Notes: generated by a model from the letters alone, not told the origin. 64,000 nt of DNA from a bacterium (GCA_024641305.1 JAHEDI010000003.1:48889-112888), one strand, 5' to 3'. Numbered from the stretch's first letter, positions 31,594-50,367 are shown. A program made the numbers and translations.

Positions 31594-32049
31594 ATGCGTT
31601 TGGTTGTTCAGCGGGTTCGTCATGCGTCGGTGGTGGTCGGCGGTCGTGAGGTCGGATCGATTGGCACCGGTTTACTGGTTCTGGCCGGTACCACGCACGG
31701 CGATTCGGAAACAGACGTGCGGGTTCTGGCGGAAAAGTTGGTCAACCTCCGGGTGTTTCCCGACGCGGACGGAAAGATGAACCGATCACTGCTTGATATC
31801 GGGGGACAGCTCCTACTGGTAAGCCAGTTCACCTTGTACGGTTCGGTCATGCGCGGTAATCGGCCGTCCTTCACCGGAGCCGGAGACCCCGTCGAGGCGG
31901 CTCGCCTTCTCGACCGGCTCGAGACTGAGATACAAGATCGTGGGGTTCACGTGGCCGGTGGAGAATTTGGCGCTTCGATGGAGGTTTCTTTGCTCAACGA
32001 TGGGCCGGTGACGTTGATTCTGGAATCCGTGTCGGGCAAACTCCGCTAG
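31594..32049 (+). CDS. dtd: D-aminoacyl-tRNA deacylase
   Basis: MRLVVQRV...SQFTLY...NGPVT(L)ILE hallmarks of Dtd. 151 aa. Confidence 0.85.
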   Translation: MRLVVQRVRHASVVVGGREVGSIGTGLLVLAGTTHGDSETDVRVLAEKLVNLRVFPDADGKMNRSLLDIGGQLLLVSQFTLYGSVMRGNRPSFTGAGDPVEAARLLDRLETEIQDRGVHVAGGEFGASMEVSLLNDGPVTLILESVSGKLR

Positions 32050-35000
32050 GACTCCAACCAGGCTTTCCCTTCCGGGCAGAAGCGGAGGAAATCGCAATTG
32101 GAACAGGCACTGGACGGGATCGGGTCGAATACCTGAGCGCCGATACCTTCGGCGATGCCCGACAACCGGCTTCTGGCGGCCTCCATCCAGGCGTCATCGA
32201 TGTGTTCGGTTCGCTCGGTGAGGCTCCCGCCCCCCAGGTAGGCAAACGTGGCGATCATCTGGTCCGGTCGGGTGGGTCCGAGGGACCCCCTGTCGACGGC
32301 CACTGCATAGGCCTGGAGCTGCACGTCCATCGCCGGGTTCTCAGAGGGTCTACCCGACTTGAAGTCGACGATTTCCCATGTCCCCGGTTGTTCCTCATAT
32401 ACGGCATCGATCCGGCCACGGATTCGCATACCGTCATGGACAAACTCGAACGGCGCTTCGATAAGGCGGGCGGCCAGGGTCGAAAATCGTGACTGTTCGA
32501 ACACGGTGAACGCGCTTGCAACATCCGACGGACCTGCGTCGGGAGCGTCATAGAAGTCGTCGGTGACCTCCTCGAACGGCACCGCGCCTCGTTGGAACAG
32601 TTCGATCTTGCGATGAACGTCAACTCCGCGCCGAGCTGCGGCTGATGGGCGACGGGGAAGGCGATCGACCTCGGACCAGTAGTACCGTTTTGGGCAGCTG
32701 GCGTAGGTAACCAGAGACGTGACGGATGTGGCGAGCGGGGCGGGAATTGGTGGACCGACCGGGTCGTCTGGCAAGTCGAAGAGTATCTGCTGAAAGTCGG
32801 TCACGGCCTGATCGTAGGTCGATCGCACGCCGAGTTGATCAGCCTGATGGCTGGCCCAACCAGGGTCAGAAAGGGTGGCACGCAATGCGCCATCCCACCC
32901 ATCGGCGAATGTCGGATCGGGCGATCCTGCTAGCGGTGACCGGCGGAGCGATTCCGGTCGAACCGGGTCCTCAACCGTCCCGAGATCGACGACATCGGGC
33001 TGTTCGGCGGCGATTTCAAAGAGCCGGCTTGGCTTTCCTGGTGTCTTGCGCACTTCGGTAGTCCCGTGCCAGGTTGCCCCGGTCAGCGTCAGCCATCGGC
33101 GTGCCCTGGTTACTGCTACGTAGGCGATACGCCACTCTTGGTCCAGGTCGCGCTGGCGCAACAGGTCGCGTCGTTCTGCCTCAGTCATGTCCGCGCTAAT
33201 TGGGGGCAGCGTATGTCGGTCAAGTCGCAGTTCGTACGGGAGCATGTATGGGTGACGAAATGGATCGTCCGAGACCCCTGAGGAACTTGGGAAGTTCTTG
33301 TCGTATAAGGCGGGTATGAACACCGCGTCCCATTCGAGGCCTTTGGAGCGATGAACTGTCAGCAGAGCGACAGCATCTTCTCCTGATAGCCGGGCCGTAT
33401 CGAGTTCTTCGGTCTGCTCTTCAACCATCACGGTGAGGTAGTCGACGAACGCCCGCAACGAGGGGCGTCCTTCAAGCGGGCTCCATTCTTCGGCCAGATC
33501 GAGGAAGCGGTAGAGATTCAGTCGCGCCGACTGGCGGGCGGCGGCCGGCATAGCGGCCACCTCCGGCCAGGCTCCGGTCCTTGACAGGATCTGGCGCACC
33601 AGCTCAATCAGGTTGACGCCCTGGGCGGCCTCGAGCAGGCTCCGGTAGGTGATGTGCAGGTGTACCAGGGCGTCAATCGTGCGGTCGTCGAGTTGATCGA
33701 CCTGGAGGTGATCGTCCTGACCCAGGGTTCCGGCATCGTCGCCCTGCGTCGACGTAAGCTGGTCGAGGGCCTCGACCATCGAGCGGCCGAACTCAGGTTG
33801 GTTCTTGACCCATCGCGACAATGGTTTGACGTCGTGCATACCGAGTCGATAGCGGCTGCCCATCGCAATACGGATGAAGGCCGGCTCGTCCGACGGGTTG
33901 TCGAGCAGACGCAACCAGGCGAAAACATCGGCTACCTCAGGTATGCCAAGAAGTCCGCCCAGGTTGGCCACCTCCACGGGGATCCCGAACTCCTCGAGAG
34001 CGCCTCGGACGGCCTCAATGTCCTTGTTCTTTCTGAAGAGAACAGCGATTTCCTTCCAGGCGATGCCCTGTTCCTCGTGCAGAGCGAGCACCTGTTCGGC
34101 GATGAAGTCCGCTTCATCGACGGCGTTGCCCTCCCAACGCACGCTGACCGCTGCCGGGCTCGTCTCGTCAAGCGCCCGTAGTGGGTCGGTGACTTCTCCG
34201 AGTTCCTCGCGTATTCGATTGGCCAGGTTCAAAATGGTTTGGCCGGATCGGCGATTGAGTGTCAATGGGTAGGTCGGGGCGGGTGACCCGTCAAGGTTGG
34301 GGAAGTGGTCGCCGAATCCCGAAAAGTTCGCCAGTGATGCGCCTCGCCACTCATAAATCGTCTGGTCGGCATCTCCAACGGCCGTGATCGGGAATCCGTC
34401 TCCGAACAGCTTACGGAGCAGTTCGCGTTGGGCGGGGTTGGTGTCCTGGTATTCGTCGAGATACACGGCGTCGTAACGACTGCGAATGCGAGCCGCCAGG
34501 TCCGGGTAGTCGCTGGTGAGTCGGTTGGCTCGAAAGATCAGGTCACCGAAATCGGCCACTCCTATGCGACGTTTTTCTTGCTCATACCGCTCGATAATGC
34601 CGAGGATCTCCAGTCGGGTCTCCCACAGCTCGTCGAGCTTGGATGGCATGAGCCCGGCCAGGTGGGAGGGTTCGGCCAGGTTGTCGGCGAGAGCGGCGGC
34701 GAGCCGGGCTGGACGGTCGAGGATCCCGCTCCACGTGATGTTCAGGTACCGGTAGGTACCGCCTTCCACGGCATCGTGGAAGAGCTGACGGGCGAACGTT
34801 GGTGTGATGAGCTGCGTGTCGCGCTCCACCCCTACGAGCGGCCCGAACTCACTGAGGATCTGATGGGCGAAACCGTGATAGGTATGGACCTCAACAGTGC
34901 GCGCCGGGTCGATACGATCGGCCAAAACGTCACGGACCCGGTCGGCGAGTTCGGCAGCGGCTTTGTTGGTAAACGTGATGCCCAGGATTCGTTCAGGATC

Positions 35001-35141
35001 TGCCCCAGAGTCGATGAGGTGAGCGATGCGATGGGCGAGCGTGGTTGTCTTGCCGGTTCCCGCCCCGGCAGCAATTCGCATGGGACCGATCGGGGCACCG
35101 ATGATCGCTGACTGCTCGTCGCTCGGTAGGAATGCGGTCAT
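32046..35141 (-). CDS. adnB: ATP-dependent helicase/nuclease subunit AdnB-like (UvrD helicase plus C-terminal RecB-type nuclease with Cys cluster)
   Basis: Walker A AGAGTGKTTTL, UvrD motifs, and a C-terminal PD-(D/E)xK region (DFKSG...QLQAY) with Cys residues (CPKRYYW...CSNCDFLRFCP). Its start overlaps the adnA stop (ATGA). Confidence 0.8.
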   Translation of the reverse strand: MTAFLPSDEQSAIIGAPIGPMRIAAGAGTGKTTTLAHRIAHLIDSGADPERILGITFTNKAAAELADRVRDVLADRIDPARTVEVHTYHGFAHQILSEFGPLVGVERDTQLITPTFARQLFHDAVEGGTYRYLNITWSGILDRPARLAAALADNLAEPSHLAGLMPSKLDELWETRLEILGIIERYEQEKRRIGVADFGDLIFRANRLTSDYPDLAARIRSRYDAVYLDEYQDTNPAQRELLRKLFGDGFPITAVGDADQTIYEWRGASLANFSGFGDHFPNLDGSPAPTYPLTLNRRSGQTILNLANRIREELGEVTDPLRALDETSPAAVSVRWEGNAVDEADFIAEQVLALHEEQGIAWKEIAVLFRKNKDIEAVRGALEEFGIPVEVANLGGLLGIPEVADVFAWLRLLDNPSDEPAFIRIAMGSRYRLGMHDVKPLSRWVKNQPEFGRSMVEALDQLTSTQGDDAGTLGQDDHLQVDQLDDRTIDALVHLHITYRSLLEAAQGVNLIELVRQILSRTGAWPEVAAMPAAARQSARLNLYRFLDLAEEWSPLEGRPSLRAFVDYLTVMVEEQTEELDTARLSGEDAVALLTVHRSKGLEWDAVFIPALYDKNFPSSSGVSDDPFRHPYMLPYELRLDRHTLPPISADMTEAERRDLLRQRDLDQEWRIAYVAVTRARRWLTLTGATWHGTTEVRKTPGKPSRLFEIAAEQPDVVDLGTVEDPVRPESLRRSPLAGSPDPTFADGWDGALRATLSDPGWASHQADQLGVRSTYDQAVTDFQQILFDLPDDPVGPPIPAPLATSVTSLVTYASCPKRYYWSEVDRLPRRPSAAARRGVDVHRKIELFQRGAVPFEEVTDDFYDAPDAGPSDVASAFTVFEQSRFSTLAARLIEAPFEFVHDGMRIRGRIDAVYEEQPGTWEIVDFKSGRPSENPAMDVQLQAYAVAVDRGSLGPTRPDQMIATFAYLGGGSLTERTEHIDDAWMEAARSRLSGIAEGIGAQVFDPIPSSACSNCDFLRFCPEGKAWLES

Positions 35142-38107
35142 CGGACAAATGCCTCTCGTCCTTCGGGCCAGAGGGGGCACACCAGTTTTACGGAGCAGTT
35201 ATTGCAGTGTATGCCGATCCGCGGGGTCCAATCTTCCGCCCGGATCCCCTCGGCGATTTCGGCCATGGAACCGAGAACCTGATCGAGCCGTGACGGATCG
35301 AATGCCACCCATTTCTTCTTCCGATCGGCGGCGGGATACCAGAACTCGGCTTCGGTTGGCGTGCCGTGTTTGAGGACCTCGGGGTCTTTCTGGGCTGCCG
35401 CCAGGTAGAACGCCAGTTGAATGGATTCAGCTGCGTCGGCCTGGCTGGGGATGCTTGTTGAGGTCTTGTAATCGACAACCCGGAGTTCGCCCTCGGCTTG
35501 TCGTTCTATACGATCGGCCCGGCCATTCCAGGTGATGTCGCTGATGTCCATCGAGAGCGTGTGTTCGAGAATCACTGCCGTGGCTCCAGGACGGATCCAG
35601 TCGGCGTATAGCTCGGTCAGCAGTTTGGTGGCTTTGTTGTACCAGGCCAGTTGGCGAGCTCCGATGTCCAGGTCGTACGTGTCGAACAGTTCGTCGAGCC
35701 ATACCAGCGCATCGTCGACGGTTGAGCGGTCGGCGCCGGTTTCGACGGCGCGGCGCTCGGCCTGTTCGAGTACGTCGTGGATCAGGCTCCCGAAGGTGGC
35801 GTAGCGTCCGAATTCGCTGGCAATGCCGAGCCTCCGTTCGAAGGCGTACCGTCGCGGGCAGGCGTCATATGAGGTTGCCTGGCTCGGGGAAAACGTTGCC
35901 CGGTCGGGGATCAAGCCGTGATCGCCGCCCCGGGGGCGAACCCCGGCAAAGTCGAGTGGGTGACGAACTGAGCGGTTCGGTCTCCTGGCCAGGACTTCGG
36001 CTGCGGCCAATCGAATGCCGGCTCCTATCGTCGGGTCGGTGAGTCGTCGCCTGAGCAGCGCTTCGGCCTCGAGCGGCGTGACCGGGATCTCGTCGGTCTC
36101 GTCGACGAGGTTGAGCGGAGCGTCTTCGTCGAGGGCGGTCAGGAAACGGCTTGGTCGTTTGTCCGTTTCGTCGATACCAGCCGAGGTGGCGGTCCAGATG
36201 GCGTGGCGGGCAGCCCGGGTGGTGGCGGTGTAGGCGAGTCGCCGTTCTTCCGCCAGTCGGAATTGGAGGCTGTCGGCGATGTCGTGGTTGGGGGACAGCA
36301 GATGTGGTTGAAGGAGGGAGCGGTTCCTTCTCAGGTCGGGAAAGGTGCCTTCGGTCGCGTCGGCGATGAAGACCACATCGAACTCAAGACCTTTGGACTG
36401 GTGAAGGGTCGTGAGCGTCAACCGGTCGCCATCGGGCCGGAACGAGAGGAGCGGGTTGGCCTCGAAGTCATCCTGCTCGGTGAGCTTCCCGTATGCGTAC
36501 AGGCCTACATGAGGGTCCCGCTCAAATTGACGCTCCACCGCCTGAGCGAGCGCCGACCACGCAGCCCGATAGGGGCCTGCCGACGGAGACGCCACCAATC
36601 CTTCGAACTGGGGGAGCGTTGACCAGACGTGCCAGAATCCGTTCACGGCCGGAAGCTCAGTCGCCCAGGTGTCATCGCCGATGAGTGTTGCCAATGGCCC
36701 GAGCCACTCGGAGTCGTAGGCCTCAAGAATCGTCGCCCAGTCATTGCCGGTTGATCTGCGCAGCCGGAGCAAGTCGCGCTCGGTGGCCAGGGCCGTGCGA
36801 AACATCGGGCCGAGGAGTAGGCGGCGAATGGCCCGATCACAGTCATCGGCTGCTCCGGTCCCAACCTTGGCGTCGTGGTGATGGGCGGCGTTGGCGATAT
36901 CGAACACGGCCCTGACGCCCGGATGATCGGCCAGGCGCGTGTCCGGTGAATCGTGGGGAATGGCCCGCCGTTCAAGCGCCCGAGATAGCTCGGCGAGAAA
37001 ACGTCGTTTGGATCGAACCAGGACGGCCATCTTGTGATAGGGAACCGACTCGGTGATGTGCATCTGCTGAACCCGCTTGGCGATCCACTCGGCCTCCTGG
37101 GACTGCTGGGTGAACAGCAAACGCTCAAGCCTTCCGGCGTGAGGTGCCGGGATTACCGAGCGGATGGCTTCGGCGTGAGGGACGAGACGATTGGCCGCGT
37201 CAAGAATGACCGCCGGTACGCGAAACGACGTTGTCAGGACGTACTGTTTCACGGGTTCGTCGGGGCTGCCGAACCGGTCGCCGAATCGATCAACGTTGTC
37301 GAGTTCGGCACCCCGGAACGAATAGACGGACTGGAGCGGGTCGGCCACCACCGTCAGATTGCGGCGCCGCTTGGTAACCCCGCCGAGCAGGGCAGCCTGG
37401 GCGGCCGTGGTGTCCTGGTACTCGTCGACGAGGACATAGTGATACTGGTCGGCGAGGGCTTCCGTGATGGTGCTTCGTCCGGCTAATTCGACGGCTCGAG
37501 CTTGCAGGGTTCCGTAGTCGATTCGATCCGAGGTCGTGATCGCTTCGAGGTACTTTGCACGGAATGCGCCCAGGCCCCGCCAGTCTGCCCGGGGTGCGGC
37601 CAGTGACGACAGTGCCGCATCGTCGAGCAGGTATTCCTGGGACCGCATGATGAAGTCGGCGACCTCTTCGGCAAAACTTCGGCTATCGAGCAACGGCCGA
37701 AAGGGCAGCGGCCAATCCGCCCGGGTTTCGGTTGCGAGTAGTCCGGCGACGACGCTCACATGCTCAGGGCCGGTCAGCAGCGTCGGCATGGTGTTCCACC
37801 CGAAGGCAGCCGGAGCATGCGCCTCGAGTAGTCGATACGCAAAACTGTGAAAGGTCGAGACGCTTAGTCCGGAAATCTGCGTGGGGGCGGTCGCGGTGAT
37901 GGCGTCGCGCAGTCGAGATGCCCCGCGTCGAGAAAATGTCAGAACGAGAATCTGGGAGGGAGGCACGCCGGATTTGAGAATGGCGGCGGCCCGACGGGCC
38001 AGGAAGGTTGTTTTTCCCGTGCCTGGCCCGGCGACAATCAGTTGGGGGCCGTCCAACAAGGTAAGGGTACGGTCCCAATCGTCGGGGTCGATACGTTCGG
38101 CAGTCAC
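35138..38107 (-). CDS. adnA: ATP-dependent helicase/nuclease subunit AdnA-like
   Basis: Walker A AGPGTGKTTFL, UvrD-like motifs, and a C-terminal nuclease module with VDYKTS...QLAFY and CNNCSVKLVCP. Lies immediately upstream of adnB as in mycobacteria. Confidence 0.75.
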   Translation of the reverse strand: MTAERIDPDDWDRTLTLLDGPQLIVAGPGTGKTTFLARRAAAILKSGVPPSQILVLTFSRRGASRLRDAITATAPTQISGLSVSTFHSFAYRLLEAHAPAAFGWNTMPTLLTGPEHVSVVAGLLATETRADWPLPFRPLLDSRSFAEEVADFIMRSQEYLLDDAALSSLAAPRADWRGLGAFRAKYLEAITTSDRIDYGTLQARAVELAGRSTITEALADQYHYVLVDEYQDTTAAQAALLGGVTKRRRNLTVVADPLQSVYSFRGAELDNVDRFGDRFGSPDEPVKQYVLTTSFRVPAVILDAANRLVPHAEAIRSVIPAPHAGRLERLLFTQQSQEAEWIAKRVQQMHITESVPYHKMAVLVRSKRRFLAELSRALERRAIPHDSPDTRLADHPGVRAVFDIANAAHHHDAKVGTGAADDCDRAIRRLLLGPMFRTALATERDLLRLRRSTGNDWATILEAYDSEWLGPLATLIGDDTWATELPAVNGFWHVWSTLPQFEGLVASPSAGPYRAAWSALAQAVERQFERDPHVGLYAYGKLTEQDDFEANPLLSFRPDGDRLTLTTLHQSKGLEFDVVFIADATEGTFPDLRRNRSLLQPHLLSPNHDIADSLQFRLAEERRLAYTATTRAARHAIWTATSAGIDETDKRPSRFLTALDEDAPLNLVDETDEIPVTPLEAEALLRRRLTDPTIGAGIRLAAAEVLARRPNRSVRHPLDFAGVRPRGGDHGLIPDRATFSPSQATSYDACPRRYAFERRLGIASEFGRYATFGSLIHDVLEQAERRAVETGADRSTVDDALVWLDELFDTYDLDIGARQLAWYNKATKLLTELYADWIRPGATAVILEHTLSMDISDITWNGRADRIERQAEGELRVVDYKTSTSIPSQADAAESIQLAFYLAAAQKDPEVLKHGTPTEAEFWYPAADRKKKWVAFDPSRLDQVLGSMAEIAEGIRAEDWTPRIGIHCNNCSVKLVCPLWPEGREAFVR

Positions 38108-39908: not shown

Positions 39909-40718
39909 CTACGAAGCGGCCGCGTCGGCTGTTTCGGCGCCGATCGCGCCAAATGCCGGGCACAGATCTTGGTATGAGCACCAATCGCACAGTTTGTTGA
40001 CTCTCGGCGGGAAGGTCTGGCTCTCGATCGCTCGATCGATGGCTTTCCAGAGTGCCTGGAGCTGTTGATTCATGGCGTCGAGATGGCCATCGGTAACCTC
40101 GAGCCGGTACATGGTGGGCCCGTTCAGATAGAGCAGACGTACCTCGACGGGTGTTCTTCCTAGCTTCTCCCTGATCAATAGCGCGTAGATCTTCAGGGCA
40201 AAAAAGGCCGGCTCGGCGAAACGCTCCGGGGGCGCCTTTCCAGACTTGTAATCGGTGATGATGAGCTCACCGGAGGGCGTCTCATCGATGCGGTCGAGAA
40301 TGCCGCGGATGGTGATGTCTCCCAGGGGTTGGAGCATGTCCATTTCCCGTTCGAGCGGATGGACTTCAGGCGGGTTCTCCACCGAGAAATAATTGGCCAG
40401 GAGTTTCATACTGTCGACGCCCCAAGTGCGTTCCTCATCCACGCTGGCGAACAGGTCGGCGTACTCCTCGGTGGCTCGCATTTGAGTCCAGGCGTCGCGG
40501 AACAAGTCATACAGTTTTTCGGGCGTCCGGGCGGTAGGGGGAAGGTCATAGAGTTTCTGGAGAGCCAGGTGTGCGGTGGTTCCCCGCGCTTGATGCACGG
40601 TGGTTGGTTCGGGAAGTTTGTCGATCGAGCGAAACTTGAAAAGCTGTGGACACAGCTTGAAGTCGCTCGCTCGACTCGGTGAAAGTGTCTCCAATGCCAT
40701 GGTGCGACTATACGACAT
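39909..40718 (-). CDS. PD-(D/E)xK (RecB/Cas4-like) nuclease with C-terminal Cys cluster
   Basis: Core IITDYKSGKAP...(E)..AL.IYALL nuclease motif (D-x-K plus QxxxY), a C-terminal CDWCSYQDLCP cluster and an N-terminal Cys (FKLCPQLF). This fits a Cas4-like 4Fe-4S nuclease domain. Confidence 0.7.
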   Translation of the reverse strand: MSYSRTMALETLSPSRASDFKLCPQLFKFRSIDKLPEPTTVHQARGTTAHLALQKLYDLPPTARTPEKLYDLFRDAWTQMRATEEYADLFASVDEERTWGVDSMKLLANYFSVENPPEVHPLEREMDMLQPLGDITIRGILDRIDETPSGELIITDYKSGKAPPERFAEPAFFALKIYALLIREKLGRTPVEVRLLYLNGPTMYRLEVTDGHLDAMNQQLQALWKAIDRAIESQTFPPRVNKLCDWCSYQDLCPAFGAIGAETADAAAS

Positions 40719-41399
40719 AGGAGTGACACGTTTGTTATTCGCTTCGGTTGCGGCCGGGCGATGTTCCGCCGATTTCGCATGAGAAAGCCGTTGTCGAGGC
40801 AAAGCGCGAAACCTTTGGCTAGCTCGCGAAATTTAGGTACCGAATTAACTTGGCAGTCCTCCCGAAGTGCGGTACGTTTATTGAACCGCATCGACGGGAC
40901 GGCCGGAGGGGCAACTCACCGGACAGAGCGACGGAGCGGATTGCTGAAACCGAGAGGGTTCAGTGAAAGCTACTGGGAGAACGAGGCCCTCGGGCAGCGG
41001 AGTTCCAGAAAGCGGGGAAGCCCTGAAGTGGCACAGGCGCAAGTCTGAGTCTCGGCAGGGCTTCTTGCTTTAACCAGCCACCGGTTCGTCCGTCTCACTG
41101 CTGACGGTCCCGGCGTTTATCACTCAGGTGGATGTTCCGTCGAAACCGATGATGCGACTCTGTCATGGTTCCCGCCCTGCCCTGCTTGGCCGGCCGGTGA
41201 ATGGATGAGCCCGTCTGAAAATCGTCATCCGAGGTGGCCAAACTCGCCGCCAGGTCTGACCCAGAAGTCCCAGCGACCCTGCCCGTGATGCGGTTCGCGA
41301 AAATTAGTCTCAAGTCGCGAAATCTAACCACGATCTGAGCTTGCCAAGTCGGTCCCGGTGTTCTACTTTTCATCTTGTTCGAAGCGGGGCGACCCGCAG

Positions 41400-42989: not shown

Positions 42990-43298
42990 ATGTCGCGAAA
43001 TCGAAGGGGACTAGACACCATGTACGAGGTGATGGAGTACACGGACGTGCGACCGTCCATTGACAACCCGAATCCGACTCCGCTTGAGCGTTCGATCGGG
43101 GTGTTTGAGGTTGAGCAAGATGCTGTGGAAGCCGGTCGAGCGGTCCGGGCCGAGTTCATCGAGTCGGAACGAGCCGAGTACACATGGTGGACGGTGCGTC
43201 AGCCCGGGTCACGTCTGGCCAACTGGATTGCTGATTCCCATTCGCCCAAGGAGTTCATGCTCGATCTCACCAGCGGTGAGCTCGTCGAGATGGAATGA
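42990..43298 (+). CDS. Hypothetical small protein
   Basis: 102-aa ORF filling the gap between ybaK-like and pghP-like genes. Its stop overlaps the next start (ATGA). No recognisable domain. Confidence 0.35.
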   Translation: MSRNRRGLDTMYEVMEYTDVRPSIDNPNPTPLERSIGVFEVEQDAVEAGRAVRAEFIESERAEYTWWTVRQPGSRLANWIADSHSPKEFMLDLTSGELVEME

Positions 43299-43861
43299 GT
43301 CGATTCGGGGAATTCCTGGCCGTCGACGGTGTCCGGGAGGAATTGACCATCGGGTCCGTGGTAGGCGTCATGGCACTTCACGGAGGCCTTGAATTCGGGA
43401 CACGCCGGTTGGCCAGGTCAATCGGCGATCTCCTACCCGTGAGTCTGTACACCGTGGTTCAACCAGTCGGTCTTGCCTGGCACCTGCCGTCGACCGCGTA
43501 TGACCGCGCGATGAGTCCCAACCTTCATCGGTTCCTTGAGCATGTCCGACTGGTGGTTTCGTTTCATGGCTATCACCGACCCGAACTCCCTGACAAGGTT
43601 CTTCTGGGTGGTACCAACCGATCCCTTGCTGCGGCCCTCGAAGCGGCCCTCACCGTCGAAGGGGTTCCGGCTGTATCCAATCTGGCCGCAATCCCGAGGG
43701 CCCTCAGGGGGCAGCACGCCCGGAATCCGGTCAATATTCCGATCGAAGCCGGTGTCCAAGTCGAACTTCCCCGGTCAATGCGCCGACCGGTCCCGTTGGT
43801 TGGCATCGTGAGAGCGCTAAGTAAAGTGCTCGAGGGAATGTCTGAGTCGCCGTCCGTCTAG
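43295..43861 (+). CDS. Poly-gamma-glutamate hydrolase (PghP)-like family protein
   Basis: ALHGGLEFGT motif (HGG.xE.GT) and ~190 aa size match the PghP / UPF0714 family. Confidence 0.5.
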   Translation: MSRFGEFLAVDGVREELTIGSVVGVMALHGGLEFGTRRLARSIGDLLPVSLYTVVQPVGLAWHLPSTAYDRAMSPNLHRFLEHVRLVVSFHGYHRPELPDKVLLGGTNRSLAAALEAALTVEGVPAVSNLAAIPRALRGQHARNPVNIPIEAGVQVELPRSMRRPVPLVGIVRALSKVLEGMSESPSV

Positions 43862-43892
43862 TGTGGCACGGTCGACTCTGGAGAGTGCATTC

Positions 43893-44258
43893 ATGCTTTT
43901 AGAGATTCATCGGAATCTGGCCTACTTCGTCGTCGGTTCTTGTGGCTCGATGGGACTGGTCGGAGTCGGCTTCGGCATTGCCAAGAAAAACCCCCCTGCC
44001 TGGTTCGCGATCGCCCGGTATGTTGCTCTTGGATCGGCTCTCGTGCAGGTCTCGTTGGGTTTGATCATGTACGGTCGGAACAACAACCCTGGCTCGATAC
44101 ACATGTTCTACGGCATTGTCACCTTGTTCACGTTGGCTTTCGCCTACATCTATCGGCTGACATTGGCGAGAAGGCCCGCGCTTGGGTGGGGGTTCTTGTT
44201 GTTGTTTGTAATGGGCCTCGGCATCCGCGGTTGGATGAATTTCGGGCAGAGTTTCTAA
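43893..44258 (+). CDS. Hypothetical 4-TM membrane protein
   Basis: Hydrophobic ORF immediately downstream of the pghP-like gene. Confidence 0.4.
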   Translation: MLLEIHRNLAYFVVGSCGSMGLVGVGFGIAKKNPPAWFAIARYVALGSALVQVSLGLIMYGRNNNPGSIHMFYGIVTLFTLAFAYIYRLTLARRPALGWGFLLLFVMGLGIRGWMNFGQSF

Positions 44259-46842: not shown

Positions 46843-47023
46843 CAGGAACCAGACCGCCCCGATGGCGATTCTCCAGAGCCGGGCCCGAAACGGTGCCAGG
46901 ATCGTCCTGCGTTGCTGATGGGTCAGATGGATGGCGATAGTCGGTTCCTCTCACCGGCCAGGGTAACCTGCGCGCCATGATTGTTGAGGAAACGCGCTCC
47001 TACACCGTATCGGCTGATTTGTT

Positions 47024-47761
47024 GTGGCGCTGAAAGCCTTCGCCGATGGAGCTTTTTTTGCCGATGTCATCGGCGCAGACCGCCCCAGGGTTCTGGCCCT
47101 GCACGGATGGGCCCGCTCGCATGCCGACTTCAAGACGGTCCTATCAGGATTCGACGCCATCTCTGTCGACTTTCCCGGGTTCGGGGCATCTCCCCAACCG
47201 GCGACCGGTTGGGGAGCGGCCGATTATGCCAACGCCGTTCGACCAGTATGGGACGTCTTCGACGAACCGCCCCTGGTGATCGGCCACTCATTTGGCGGTC
47301 GGGTGGCTGTTCATCTCGCTGAGGATATGCCCATGCGTTCATTGGTGCTCATCGGCGTGCCGTTGATTCGACCTCCTTCGAAGCGCCAGGCCGCGCCGGC
47401 TTTTCGTATGATGCGCCGCCTGCATCGACTCGGACTGGTCTCAGACGCAAAGCTCGAAGCGCTCCGGCAGCGATATGGATCGGCCGACTATCTGGCTACG
47501 AGTGGGGTCATGCGTGACGTCTTCGTGAGGGTTGTCAACGAGTCGTATGAGGAGCAGCTCGACCACCTGACGGTTCCGATTGAAATGCTCTGGGGATCGC
47601 TTGATACGGCGGCCCCGCTTGACCTGGCGACCCAGGCGTACGAGCGCCTTTTGTCCAACGGTGCCGACGTCCGGATGCAGGTGTTGGACGGAGTTGGCCA
47701 TCATGTGATGGCCGAGCAGCCGGAGATGGTTCGGTCTTTGATAGCGGAGCTGTTGGAATGA
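47024..47761 (+). CDS. Alpha/beta hydrolase fold protein
   Basis: GHSFGG nucleophile elbow and HG oxyanion region (LHGWA). 245 aa. Confidence 0.75.
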   Translation: MALKAFADGAFFADVIGADRPRVLALHGWARSHADFKTVLSGFDAISVDFPGFGASPQPATGWGAADYANAVRPVWDVFDEPPLVIGHSFGGRVAVHLAEDMPMRSLVLIGVPLIRPPSKRQAAPAFRMMRRLHRLGLVSDAKLEALRQRYGSADYLATSGVMRDVFVRVVNESYEEQLDHLTVPIEMLWGSLDTAAPLDLATQAYERLLSNGADVRMQVLDGVGHHVMAEQPEMVRSLIAELLE

Positions 47762-49272
47762 ACGGGGTGTTCGTCGTCGCTGCGACGTTTGTCGGAGCGG
47801 TTTCTTCGTTGCGATGGTTCCGGGTTGCCCAGCGCGAGCATTACTTGCCCTGGTCCGTGTCGGTGTTCGCCAGGCGATGGTGGCTTATTGATGCGGTGAA
47901 CGTGACGCTGATAGCCGTGGCGGCAACGAGTGCGGCTCTCGCCCTCGTTGGGATTGTTCCCCTGGTCACCGGAAGCGTCACACTCATCTGTGTCCTCGTC
48001 GGCCCGATCGGGCTTTCCCTTAAAGGCACTTCATCACCGTTGGCGTGGACCGACCGGTTGCGACGGGTCGCTCTGGCCGCCGGCGTTCTCTGGGTCATCA
48101 TGGTCGCCATCGGCGGGCTCACGGGATCGATTGGACTGTTGGCCTATGAAGCGGTGGCTCTGCCGTTGGTTGTCGACGTGGCGTTGGCCATCATGTGGCC
48201 GCTGGAAATGCGTTCGCAACGGACCTGGATCGATCAGGCCCTCACTCGGATTACGTCAGTCAAGCCGACGGTTATTGGAATTACGGGATCATATGGAAAG
48301 ACCACCACCAAGGAGTACACCCGGCGGTTGCTGACCAGTCACGGTGCCACTGTGGCCACCCCGGCCAGTTTCAACAACAAGATGGGCCTGGCGCGGGCGA
48401 TTAATGAGCATCTCAGCGACGGCAGTCAGTACTTCATCGCCGAGATGGGAACATATGGACCAGGGGAAATTGCAGAGATGTGCCAGTGGGTTCCACCGCA
48501 GGTGGCGGTAATAACCGCCATTGGACCGGTGCACCTCGAACGATTCGGATCGCTCGAGCGGGTTGTCGAGGCGAAATCCGAAATCTTCGCCGACGCCCAA
48601 GTGGTTGTCTTGAATGTGGATGACGACCATCTGGCACGACTGGCCGACTCGATCAAAGACAAGCGGGTCGTCAGGGTCTCCGCAGGAAAGGTGGCCGCGG
48701 CCAATATTGTCCTTGCCGCCGAGGGAGACAATGTCGAGGTTCGGGTCGACGGTTCGTTGGTGGCGCAGGTTCCGTCCGTGCCACTTCTTTCGAATCTTGC
48801 CTGCGCCATCGGGGTGCTGGTAGGTCTCGAACTCCCGCTGGCTCGTCTGACTGACGCCTTGCGAGGAGCTGATACTCCTGATCATCGTCAATCCGTTTTC
48901 ACCTCTGAAGCTGGGGTGGTCATTATCGATGACACGTACAACTCGAACCCGACCGGCGGCCAGGCGGCTCTTGATCGCCTTGCCCAACTTGGCACAGGGC
49001 GCCGGGTCGTCGTAACACCTGGCATGGTCGAATTGGGGGATCAACAGGCCATCGAGAATCGCCACTTCGCCGAGAAGGCGGGTTCTGTGGCCGACCAGCT
49101 CCTCGTCGTGGCCAGGACCAACCGCCGGGCGTTGCTGGACGGAGCCGCGAACGTTTCGCTTCCGGTTATCGTTGTTCCATCACGAGAGGCGGCAGTGTCC
49201 TGGGTTCGCGAGAACCTTGGACCGGGAGACGCCGTTCTGTATGAAAACGACCTGCCTGATCACCACCCTTAG
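47758..49272 (+). CDS. Mur ligase family protein, MurF-like C-terminal domains fused to an N-terminal ~170-aa polytopic membrane domain
   Basis: P-loop GITGSYGKTTTKE, IDDTYNSNPTG and TPGMVELGD motifs are MurF-like. The first ~170 aa contain about 4 TM helices in place of the usual MurF N-domain. Its start overlaps the upstream hydrolase stop (ATGA). Confidence 0.7.
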   Translation: MNGVFVVAATFVGAVSSLRWFRVAQREHYLPWSVSVFARRWWLIDAVNVTLIAVAATSAALALVGIVPLVTGSVTLICVLVGPIGLSLKGTSSPLAWTDRLRRVALAAGVLWVIMVAIGGLTGSIGLLAYEAVALPLVVDVALAIMWPLEMRSQRTWIDQALTRITSVKPTVIGITGSYGKTTTKEYTRRLLTSHGATVATPASFNNKMGLARAINEHLSDGSQYFIAEMGTYGPGEIAEMCQWVPPQVAVITAIGPVHLERFGSLERVVEAKSEIFADAQVVVLNVDDDHLARLADSIKDKRVVRVSAGKVAAANIVLAAEGDNVEVRVDGSLVAQVPSVPLLSNLACAIGVLVGLELPLARLTDALRGADTPDHRQSVFTSEAGVVIIDDTYNSNPTGGQAALDRLAQLGTGRRVVVTPGMVELGDQQAIENRHFAEKAGSVADQLLVVARTNRRALLDGAANVSLPVIVVPSREAAVSWVRENLGPGDAVLYENDLPDHHP

Positions 49273-49281
49273 GAGCATCCA

Positions 49282-50367
49282 ATGAGCCCGCGACCTGCAG
49301 TCGTCTTTGGAGGGCCCTCGCCCGAGCACGACATCTCCATCCTTACCGGACTTCAGGCGGCCCGGGTTCTAGCCACATCCGGGCGCGAGGTCGATGTGAT
49401 CTACTGGACAAAGACCGGCCAATGGTTCTCGGTCGATGCGGCTTCCGAGGCGGCGCATTTCTCACAAGGGGTTCCTGCCAAGGCCAAACCGCTCCGCTTT
49501 GAGCCAGAACCGGGAGGTGGTTTCTTCAACAAGAAGAAACCACTCGACGTCTCGGTGGTCCTGAACGCCTGTCATGGTGGTCCGGGGGAGGACGGGACGC
49601 TGCAAGGATTGTTCGACCTTGCCGGCCTCAGATACACCGGTCCTGACTCGGCTGCCTCAGCGCTCGGCATGGACAAGCTTGCCTTTGGTGGATTGATGGT
49701 CGCCGCTGGCCTTCCCAGCCTGCCGCGCCTGCTTGTCGGCGGTCCGGCCCCTGACTTCGAGGGGCCTTATATCGTCAAACCTCGCTATGGAGGCTCTTCG
49801 ATCGGTATCAGCGTTGTTGAGGATTATGACACTGCTTTGGCGCTTCTGAAGACCTCGCCGCACATGGTCAAAGGCGCGGTACTGGAACCGTTCCTTTCCG
49901 GGTCACAGGATCTCAACGTCGCCGTTCGAACGTATCCTCAGGTGGAGACGTCGGCCATCGAAGCTCCGCTACGCGACTCTGATCAGATCTATGACTATGC
50001 CCAAAAGTATCTGGAAGGCGATGGTGGTATGGATGCTGCCAAACGTGAGCTTCCGGCCAACCTGCCCGAAGAAGACGCGACCCGCATCCGGCGGATGGCC
50101 AAACAAATCGTAGACCTTGCCCGACTGCGCTCGGTGGCCAGGATCGATTTCCTCGCCCACGACGGCGTCATCTATGTGAATGAGGTAAATACGATCCCGG
50201 GAAGTCTGGCCGGTTATCTCTGGATTGATCCGCCGATCGGGCGTGCCCAGCTACTTGGGGACATGCTTGAGGAAGTGACGAAACTCCCGCCGACGAGGTA
50301 CACCACCGCAGGTGCTGACGGGACGGCGCTACGAAGTGCCGGCTCGATCGCTTCCAAACTCGGCTAG
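49282..50367 (+). CDS. ddl: D-alanine--D-alanine ligase
   Basis: CHGGPGEDGTLQGLFDLAGLRYTG and ATP-grasp C-terminal motifs (EVNTIPG). Confidence 0.85.
   Translation: MSPRPAVVFGGPSPEHDISILTGLQAARVLATSGREVDVIYWTKTGQWFSVDAASEAAHFSQGVPAKAKPLRFEPEPGGGFFNKKKPLDVSVVLNACHGGPGEDGTLQGLFDLAGLRYTGPDSAASALGMDKLAFGGLMVAAGLPSLPRLLVGGPAPDFEGPYIVKPRYGGSSIGISVVEDYDTALALLKTSPHMVKGAVLEPFLSGSQDLNVAVRTYPQVETSAIEAPLRDSDQIYDYAQKYLEGDGGMDAAKRELPANLPEEDATRIRRMAKQIVDLARLRSVARIDFLAHDGVIYVNEVNTIPGSLAGYLWIDPPIGRAQLLGDMLEEVTKLPPTRYTTAGADGTALRSAGSIASKLG

Follow-up and report, generated by a model that had tools for sequence, protein, structure and literature searches.

A membrane-anchored MurF-type ligase encoded at the ddl locus is the probable housekeeping MurF of an Acidimicrobiia bacterium

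A stretch of 64,000 nucleotides (nt) from an Acidimicrobiia bacterium (GCA_024641305.1 JAHEDI010000003.1:48889-112888), called the window in the following and numbered over its whole length, carries three plus-strand open reading frames at 47024-50367, which code for an alpha/beta hydrolase, a Mur-type ligase and a D-alanine--D-alanine ligase (Ddl), in that order. The Mur-type ligase of 504 amino acids (aa) is predicted to be the housekeeping MurF of this organism in a membrane-integral form, encoded at the ddl locus and supplied with D-Ala-D-Ala by the Ddl, and a probability of about 0.68 is assigned to this reading. It is based on an intact catalytic core, the linkage to ddl, dcw clusters of the lineage that are devoid of murF, and the replacement of a soluble MurF by the membrane form in Nocardioides. 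The genes and their junctions are as follows:

47024..47761, plus strand: alpha/beta-fold serine hydrolase, 245 aa, cytoplasmic, operon gene 1 (Pfam)
47758..47761, plus strand: ATGA overlap of the hydrolase TGA with the ligase ATG (sequence read)
47758..49272, plus strand: membrane-anchored MurF-type ligase, 504 aa, operon gene 2
49271..49275, plus strand: AGGAG Shine-Dalgarno sequence of ddl, overlapping the ligase stop codon at 49270-49272 (sequence read)
49282..50367, plus strand: D-alanine--D-alanine ligase, module-specific type, 361 aa, operon gene 3 (Pfam)

The start of the ligase gene inside the stop codon of the hydrolase gene had been pointed out in the initial annotation of this stretch and is real, which indicates translational coupling. 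Equivalent overlaps of 4 nt or 1 nt between the hydrolase and ligase genes were found in the loci L001, L084, L085, L086 and L089. The ddl gene follows directly, as had been stated, with a gap of 9 nt between the ligase stop codon and the ddl ATG instead of the 10 nt given there.

The MurF-type central and C-terminal motifs claimed for the ligase are present in the sequence, and Pfam found the two domains:

48280..48813, plus strand: Mur ligase central (ATP-binding) domain, aa 175-352, with the P-loop GITGSYGKTTTKE (Pfam PF08245, 6e-33)
48883..49239, plus strand: Mur ligase C-terminal domain, aa 376-494, with DDTYNSNP and TPGMVELG (Pfam PF02875)

Mur_ligase_M at 175-352 and Mur_ligase_C at 376-494 are the sole Pfam matches; none lies before residue 175, and the Pfam scan gave no match to PF01225, which represents domain 1 of MurF. 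The NCBIfam murF model (TIGR01143) reached 209.4 bits and is aligned only from profile position 65 of 418, and a copy of the membrane ligase from Nocardioides scored 194.7 bits with this model. The other NCBIfam scores of the ligase were 75 for murD, 57 for murC, at most 49 for murE and 15.9 for MurT, which has a cutoff of 800. MurF chains came out on top of the PDB sequence search, aligned only from about chain residue 74-116, and MurF structures (4qf5, 3zl8, 4cvm) led the fold search with the AlphaFold2 model. Profile, sequence and fold searches place the ligase closest to MurF and not to MurC, MurD, MurE, MurT, Mpl, CphA or FolC. Since the Pfam, murF-profile and PDB alignments all start past it, domain 1 of MurF is indeed missing from the ligase.

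As a reference for the catalytic residues, 86 positions were used that do not vary among six canonical MurFs (E. coli, the dcw MurF of Tsukamurella and four MurFs of Nocardioides). The equivalents of E. coli MurF K111, T112, E158, H188, K202 and E204 are kept in at least 90% of 121 family members, and those of the C-terminal residues R316, D331, N334, N336, M361, E363, L364 and G365 are also kept in the family. The retained positions cover the catalytic core, i.e., the P-loop, E158, H188, K202, D-x-Y-N-x-N and M-x-E-L-G. Following NN..G, the canonical signature P-x-T-L-L-R is replaced by A-R-A-I-N-E-H-L in the membrane form. Furthermore, a family-specific C-terminus, VLYENDLPDH, is invariant, whereas canonical MurFs end in VL(V/F)K(G/A)SR.

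The N-terminus had been described in the initial annotation as a hydrophobic region of about four transmembrane (TM) helices standing in place of the substrate-binding domain of MurF. Based on 118 homologs, the AlphaFold2 model and the positive-inside rule, the anchor and its position were borne out; the number of helices, taken from the homologs, is five:

47758..48201, plus strand: N-terminal membrane module, aa 1-148, five TM helices, replacing MurF domain 1
47806..47883, plus strand: cytoplasmic loop 1, aa 17-42, motif R-x-x-R-V-A-Q-R-E-H-Y ... F-x-x-R-W (alignments)
48001..48066, plus strand: cytoplasmic loop 2, aa 82-103, motif G-P-x-G-L ... G ... L-x-W-T-x-R-L-R-R (alignments)

Five hydrophobic segments were present within residues 1-150 of all 118 homologs. 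AlphaFold2 placed helices at 2-26, 33-44, 46-64, 68-81, 99-122 and 125-133 and a long helix at 135-168 entering the ligase, with a mean predicted local distance difference test (pLDDT) value of 88.6 for the whole ligase and of 96.6 (predicted template modelling score, pTM, 0.89) for the module modelled alone (residues 1-165). In the alignment with PaMurF, which begins at query residue 139, the long helix 135-168 falls on the final helix of canonical domain 1. The mean number of Lys/Arg residues is 5.3 in segment 19-45, 4.8 in 82-103 and 4.4 in 149-170, and about 0.1 in the two short outside turns. By the positive-inside rule, which is unambiguous here, the module is predicted to be oriented N-out/C-in, which puts the two conserved loops on the cytoplasmic side, next to the catalytic domains.

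These two loops are the best-conserved part of the module. In loop 1, R19, R22, Q25, R26, E27, H28, Y29, F37, R40 and W41 show no variation in alignments A1 and A3, and a core of W20, R22, A24-Y29 and W41 is invariant in alignment A2 too, which takes in Actinomycetes and Ca. Actinomarina. In loop 2, the same holds for P83, G85, G90, W97, T98 and R100 in A1 and A3, and for P83, G85, T98 and R100 in A2 as well. RVAQREHY, W41, P83, G85, T98, R100 and E150 are therewith invariant from Acidimicrobiia to Actinomycetes and Ca. Actinomarina. Relatives of the module were found neither in Pfam nor in the PDB, and the curated libraries (Pfam, NCBIfam) contain no model for the family or for its N-terminal module. 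Among 1.84 billion representatives, searched exhaustively, the module occurs in only about 250 clusters (50% identity), always N-terminal to this ligase. A few cases with a seemingly internal module, which had the appearance of hydrolase-ligase fusion proteins, were rejected as frameshifted read-throughs of the overlapping genes.

An artefact, in which an over-extended start or a misassembly joined hydrophobic sequence to an ordinary MurF, can practically be dismissed. It would explain the unusual architecture and nothing else, whereas the motifs are conserved along the full N-terminus in hundreds of independent assemblies, isolate genomes included, the structure prediction is confident, and the ligase start overlaps the upstream stop codon in many lineages. 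An artefact of this kind is refuted by the conservation data. The same applies to the case, raised in the initial annotation, of a misassembled start in a sole murF, as the orthologs do carry the N-terminal extension.

The trio was followed through a scan of species-representative genomes, in which at least 592 genomes, a lower bound, encode the family; most are Acidimicrobiia and some are Actinomycetes. Such recurrence of the architecture, together with that in more than 250 clusters at 50% identity, goes far past what chance would produce. The best 80 loci were analyzed in detail, with the taxonomic labels of metagenome-assembled genomes (MAGs) being those of their depositors. Nearly all of them belong to Acidimicrobiia, including complete sponge-symbiont chromosomes and the streamlined Ca. 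Actinomarina, which has retained the trio. The Actinomycetes minority consists of Nocardioides isolates, Microbacteriaceae of the Homoserinimonas/Rhodoglobus type and one Propionibacteriaceae MAG. Among the 80 loci, about 77 have the hydrolase gene directly before the ligase gene and about 70 have ddl directly after it, so that the conservation of the trio in relatives, which had been proposed for checking, could be established. Neither dcw genes nor other Mur ligases were found in 82 related loci. The closest relatives are Acidimicrobiia MAGs with 95% and 75% identity, and cultured carriers include N. luteus, N. albus, N. panzhihuensis, N. bruguierae and Arsenicicoccus dermatophilus. In the ligase tree, the copies from Actinomycetes form their own clade beside, not inside, Acidimicrobiia, which fits an old and mostly vertical inheritance; recent horizontal transfer from Acidimicrobiia to Actinomycetes was rejected on the same ground. 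The membrane form was absent from the plasmid records examined, and the canonical actinobacterial murF genes on large records labelled as plasmids do not come from relatives of membrane-form genomes.

The hydrolase matched Abhydrolase_6 (2e-18), Abhydrolase_1 and Hydrolase_4 in Pfam. A triad composed of Ser (in GHSFGGR), Asp (in WG..D) and a C-terminal His has been preserved across 79 orthologs, and the enzyme appears to be active. A close characterised relative was found neither among the NCBIfam equivalog models nor in the PDB, where the best match had 39 bits. The association of the hydrolase with MurF is genuine and conserved.

The Ddl matched Dala_Dala_lig_N and Dala_Dala_lig_C in Pfam and remained under the curated NCBIfam cutoff (194.6 versus 245.65 bits); its nearest relative in the PDB is M. 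tuberculosis DdlA (3lwb). The equivalents of DdlB E15, H63, K97, K144, S150, K215, Y216, R255, D257, E270, N272 and G276 are kept in the module Ddl. Six of six aligned module Ddls contain the Glu15/Ser150/Tyr216 specificity triad and the catalytic residues, and the Ddl motifs are conserved in 72 orthologs. The combination of Ser150 and Tyr216 is typical of D-Ala-D-Ala ligases and not of D-Ala-D-Lac ligases (DdlB versus VanA). All module Ddls aligned have Tyr instead of Ser281 in the D-Ala2 site. In addition, a C-terminal tail of about 45 aa is conserved in module Ddls, but not in canonical DdlA and DdlB:

50227..50364, plus strand: family-specific C-terminal tail of Ddl, about aa 316-361, ending in ...G.aL..AG.IasKLG (alignments)

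Microbacteriaceae-type loci show the order gpsA, hydrolase, ligase, ddl, DUF3515. The order gpsA-ddlA-DUF3515, as in M. tuberculosis Rv2982c-Rv2980, is the classical actinobacterial arrangement, and the Microbacteriaceae-type order is this arrangement with two genes inserted ahead of ddl.

The features of the Ddl also bear on a module of the glycopeptide-resistance type, in which the Ddl would make an alternative dipeptide or depsipeptide and a dedicated MurF would install it. MurF paralogs adjoining van genes are known in Actinomycetes (PMC8698665), and the family-wide exchange of Ser281 for Tyr, the sub-cutoff scores of the Ddl and a VanX-like M15 peptidase at one locus only, L085, would be in line with such a function. 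However, the Ddl keeps Ser150 and Tyr216 and lies at the housekeeping gpsA-ddl-DUF3515 position, all Van ligase models of NCBIfam scored far below their cutoffs with the Ddl of the window, no vanH, vanX, vanRS or gene for a D-Ala-D-Lac or D-Ala-D-Ser ligase was found near the trio in the 80 loci, and the genomes of Acidimicrobiales and Actinomarinales were reported to lack van-like genes (PMC8698665). A resistance module is therefore considered very improbable.

In Nocardioides, soluble and membrane-integral MurF were found in the same chromosomal slot. The comparison was anchored on the neighbouring compact Ddl2, which occurs genus-wide. Between the gene of a pyridoxal phosphate (PLP) enzyme and Ddl2, a soluble MurF with the PF01225 domain 1 and a DdlA are encoded in six of six genomes without the membrane form. 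The slot MurFs of two of these genomes were scored and reached 400-423 bits with TIGR01143, above the cutoff of 288.6, and the canonical DdlA of the same two genomes 471-479 bits; the other four slot MurFs were assigned by their PF01225+M+C architecture and 58-69% identity. Four of the six were compared with the Tsukamurella dcw MurF and are 45-48% identical to it. In three of three genomes with the membrane form, the slot contains the hydrolase, the membrane ligase and the module Ddl, and no canonical murF or ddlA was found within 10 kb. Hence, the Ddl type co-varies with the MurF form. Soluble slot MurFs and the membrane form share only 28-38% identity over the ligase domains. As the slot holds either soluble murF-ddlA or the membrane trio, the two forms of MurF are judged to be interchangeable at this locus.

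The slot of N. baekrokdamisoli (2.97 Mb, AP019307.1; L089:12445-14528, minus strand) shows an intermediate arrangement: a hydrolase gene and the gene of a soluble MurF overlap in GTGA, and canonical DdlA comes next. This hydrolase has 58-59% identity to the other Nocardioides copies and 45% to the hydrolase of the window. This overlap shows the hydrolase to be a partner of MurF in general, whether or not a membrane anchor is present.

The anchor protein Ddl2 (about 318 aa) adjoins DUF3515 and thiL (L082:12731-13687, minus strand; also L086, L087-L090, L093 and L094) and coexists with canonical DdlA or with the module Ddl. In two aligned copies ('LEVAITPG'), Ala replaces the residue that corresponds to the Mg-binding Asn272 of E. 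coli DdlB, the copy of YR527 has Arg for Lys215, and Ddl2 is slightly under the curated Ddl cutoffs (229 versus 243). As it occurs throughout the genus, Ddl2 was rejected as an accessory gene.

A metagenome scan with an actinobacterial MraY yielded 80 dcw loci, most of which show the order murE-murF-mraY. In L115, L116, L118, L119 and L132, mraY comes directly after murE, 42-99 bp away, and murF is absent; a relaxed search found no separate MurF-like gene in these five loci either. The five murF-less clusters form one MraY clade. For four of them, NCBI proteins named 'Acidimicrobiales bacterium' fall into the MraY cluster, and the FtsZ of L118 agrees with this assignment. The named controls with an intact murF are all non-Acidimicrobiia (Propioniferax, Propionibacteriaceae, Ca. 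Nanopelagicales/Actinomycetota and an unclassified Actinomycetota MAG). Furthermore, a C-terminal murF remnant of about 100 aa was identified between murE and mraY in L102:9681-9947 (Micrococcales), L109:5372-5680 and L112:9645-9923 (Pontimonas-like Microbacteriaceae). Judging by these remnants, the phylum has lost the dcw murF more than once, and the three lineages must encode MurF elsewhere.

Several observations weigh against a housekeeping role of the membrane form. The ligase scores below the curated murF cutoff (209.4 versus 288.6 bits), and only 33 of the 86 canonical-invariant positions are retained in at least 90% of the 121 family members. Together with the exchange of P-x-T-L-L-R for A-R-A-I-N-E-H-L, this suggests that the acceptor site has changed in the membrane form. 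The loss of the UDP-binding domain is also what an acceptor without UDP would predict, and the hydrolase is left without a role. The murF-less dcw clusters and the membrane-ligase loci come from different contigs of the same class, so that this genome may carry a canonical murF at a third location. The dcw clusters of Propionibacteriaceae and Microbacterium contain murF, and the membrane-form genomes of Nocardioides and Microbacteriaceae may also have a dcw murF. In Arsenicicoccus the trio lies in a non-housekeeping neighbourhood, and in L085, a Mycobacteriales-like contig, it shares an island with a soluble MurF that is truncated and with a VanX-like peptidase. Based on these two contexts, the membrane form may be an accessory second system in some Actinomycetes.

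Much of this would also fit an accessory MurF paralog beside a canonical MurF, the trio then being a peptide-ligation, repair or remodelling module for another membrane acceptor, as the initial annotation had proposed in one of two options. The low murF score and the diverged acceptor site, the accessory-looking context in Arsenicicoccus, the L085 island with its second MurF-like gene and VanX/DdpX-like peptidase, the presence of the membrane form in only some Nocardioides species and the dcw murF kept in related Actinomycetes families all point in this direction. However, the five dcw clusters of Acidimicrobiales contain no murF, and no other MurF-type gene was seen in them, the streamlined Ca. 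Actinomarina retains the trio, the Nocardioides trio replaces canonical murF-ddlA and is not added to it, and the soluble MurF of L085 is truncated. A paralog is thus regarded as improbable, with the murF-less clusters and the slot replacement as the main counterevidence. The other option, an unusual fusion, came closer, as the protein behaves like a housekeeping MurF in an unusual form, and this form is probably the only MurF of the genome.

For the housekeeping MurF, the following mechanism can be assumed. The five-helix module would replace domain 1, which holds the uridine diphosphate (UDP) end of the substrate, and the Arg-rich invariant loops would take over the binding of the diphosphate end of the precursor. 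The membrane MurF would add D-Ala-D-Ala, supplied by the co-transcribed matching Ddl, to the tripeptide precursor carrying N-acetylmuramic acid (MurNAc) for bulk peptidoglycan, its gene having presumably been relocated from the dcw cluster to the classical actinobacterial ddl locus. UDP-MurNAc-tripeptide is favoured as acceptor over a lipid-linked one, with the product made at the membrane beside MraY, since a swap between sister species is easier if the MraY substrate stays unchanged and since helix 135-168 corresponds in the alignment to the final helix of domain 1 in canonical MurF.

Alternatively, the protein could be the only MurF but act after MraY, adding D-Ala-D-Ala to the tripeptide of lipid I or lipid II at the inner membrane face. 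MraY would first have transferred phospho-MurNAc-tripeptide to undecaprenyl phosphate, and the nucleotide precursor would not serve the membrane MurF as a substrate. The loops would then bind the undecaprenyl-diphosphate head group, and the coupled hydrolase would work on this lipid-linked intermediate, e.g., in trimming or editing the stem. The missing UDP-binding domain 1, the invariant Arg-rich loops at the membrane-cytoplasm interface, the altered acceptor-side signature and the Acidimicrobiales dcw clusters without murF could be explained in this way, and MurT-GatD, with a Mur-ligase relative that lacks the N-terminal domain, works on lipid II. Against it, the free exchange of soluble and membrane MurF in Nocardioides would need a differing MraY substrate in sister species, and the match of helix 135-168 to the last helix of domain 1 suggests the same overall geometry. 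A lipid-linked acceptor, including the proposed roles of loops and hydrolase, is accordingly held to be unlikely, although less so than the paralog. If it were true, the pentapeptide stem would be completed after the MraY step, and not before it, in the whole class and in some Actinomycetes.

Upstream, the operon is bordered by a divergent gene for a GAF-histidine kinase:

46843..47023, no strand: intergenic stretch flanked by the divergent genes of the histidine kinase (minus strand, start 46842) and the hydrolase, presumed to hold the operon promoter (gene layout)

A consensus scan of 46843-47023 found no sigma-70-like site, and the promoter is placed from the layout only. The promoter/terminator scan of the window did not exceed background level, and Rfam gave no RNA elements in the window. 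Downstream, convergent small genes (AsnC-type, cold-shock-type, rpmB) are followed by recG, rsmD and coaD. This layout agrees with the annotated ortholog locus L001. The window contains no second Mur ligase and no dcw gene, and its remaining genes are ordinary housekeeping genes, such as those for AdnAB-like helicase-nucleases, a PlsB-like acyltransferase, PlsX and RNase III.

Some further genes of the window were recorded. Two adjoining UvrD-helicase/PD-(D/E)XK nuclease genes (32046-38107, minus strand; 1044 and 989 aa) form an AdnAB-type pair, and a further stand-alone PDDEXK_1 protein is encoded at 39909-40802. A poly-gamma-glutamate-hydrolase-like protein (PF05908) at 43295-43861 is shared only with the closest relative, L050. 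Directly after it, a membrane protein of 131 aa without a Pfam family (43863-44258) is encoded, which many Acidimicrobiia keep, together with fabI, upstream of the trio.

Variations were also seen among the related loci. L069:8481-11548 is the only locus that lacks both hydrolase and ddl; a 506-aa PF04185 phosphoesterase (phospholipase C/acid phosphatase family) ends exactly at the start of its membrane ligase. In L013:11662-13599 (Ca. Spongiisocius, OZ241858.1), a defence-type pair of RloB and AAA_21 occupies the usual place of ddl, and no ddl was found within 10 kb. A GNAT acetyltransferase is encoded beside ddl in L084:12031-12540 (Arsenicicoccus, membrane form) and in L088:11048-11614 (Nocardioides sp. 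BP30, soluble form), and its recurrence beside the murF-ddl pair in two unrelated arrangements may be meaningful. The L085 island (L085:7983-14599, JAPPSC010030142.1) lies upstream of a Rv3143-type response regulator and nuoA. Its soluble MurF is divergent, has 381 aa, passes the murF cutoff and begins at the position corresponding to E. coli residue 80; it lacks domain 1, and stop codons lie upstream. The island also encodes a 394-aa protein and a VanX/DdpX-like M15 dipeptidase, and its label, Gordonia sp. HS-NH1, is doubtful, the assembly having more than 30,000 contigs. L006, L008 and L014 were deposited as MAGs of Acidobacteria or Gammaproteobacteria. As they show the full Acidimicrobiia synteny (fabI, histidine kinase, hydrolase, ligase, ddl, recG) and identities in the range usual for Acidimicrobiia, these contigs have probably been mis-binned or mislabelled.

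MurF is an essential and heavily studied antibiotic target, and the textbook view is that of a soluble cytoplasmic enzyme with three domains. A description of a membrane-integral MurF was not found in the searchable literature, including that on MurF paralogs and on dcw clusters or murF in Acidimicrobia; the sole relevant point from PMC10214165, PMC4255298 and PMC3035218 was the presence of meso-diaminopimelate in A. ferrooxidans. The membrane MurF is a hitherto undescribed form of a known enzyme and not a new kind of system. A whole class, abundant in soils, oceans and sponges, appears to run the MurF step with a membrane-integral enzyme without the UDP-binding domain. Domain 1 of MurF would thus be replaceable, which raises the question of how the acceptor is recognised. 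The use of such an enzyme lends direct genetic support to an organisation of the last cytoplasmic peptidoglycan steps at the membrane beside MraY, and MurF gains a conserved alpha/beta hydrolase as a partner that is coupled in translation. Cultured Nocardioides with the soluble or the membrane form at one locus offer a ready test system. Finally, NCBI names the ligase inconsistently, as MurF or 'Mur ligase family protein', and with such labels and sub-threshold scores, pathway reconstructions for Acidimicrobiia can be misread.

The closest known system is canonical MurF (UDP-MurNAc-tripeptide--D-alanyl-D-alanine ligase, EC 6.3.2.10; TIGR01143; 1gg4, 4qf5, 3zl8, 4cvm), which has the same central and C-terminal domains and fold as the membrane form. 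The P-loop, the Mg/ATP residues, the position of the carbamylated Lys, D-x-Y-N-x-N and M-x-E-L-G are kept, linkage to ddl is shared, and the pathway step is probably the same. In contrast to canonical MurF, the membrane form is membrane-integral, with a five-TM module for domain 1, scores below the cutoff, has A-R-A-I-N-E-H-L for P-x-T-L-L-R and ENDLPDH for KGSR, and always lies outside the dcw cluster in the loci examined.

In Firmicutes, e.g., Bacillus subtilis, ddl and murF form an operon and the dcw cluster has the order murE-mraY. The position of murF next to ddl and its absence from the dcw cluster are common to both systems, whereas in the trio murF precedes ddl, a coupled hydrolase gene lies upstream and MurF is membrane-integral.

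MurT-GatD is the lipid II isoglutamine synthase, and MurT is a precedent for a Mur-type ligase on a membrane-bound precursor. It resembles the membrane ligase in its Mur-ligase fold without a UDP-binding domain and in having a hydrolase-type partner. However, MurT has no TM domain and no linkage to ddl, and its partner is a glutaminase and not an alpha/beta hydrolase; no glutaminase neighbours the membrane ligase in the window or in the 80 loci.

PgsB/CapB, a Mur-ligase-like poly-gamma-glutamate synthetase with a single N-terminal anchor, is likewise a Mur-ligase fold tethered to the membrane. It differs in this single anchor as opposed to the conserved five-helix module, in its chemistry and in the lack of MurF-specific motifs, and no match to this family turned up in the Pfam and NCBIfam scans of the ligase.

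A natural MurE-MurF fusion (8f5d; PMC10214165) is soluble and consists of two complete ligases. There, too, MurF is physically organised with neighbouring pathway steps, whereas in the membrane form a domain has been swapped for a membrane anchor.

Finally, the soluble murF-ddlA pairs of Nocardioides (N. dokdonensis, N. baekrokdamisoli, sp. BP30 and others) differ from the trio in their full-length soluble MurF with the PF01225 domain 1 and their canonical DdlA. They share with it the slot, the orientation and the order of murF before ddl, and in N. baekrokdamisoli also the upstream hydrolase family.

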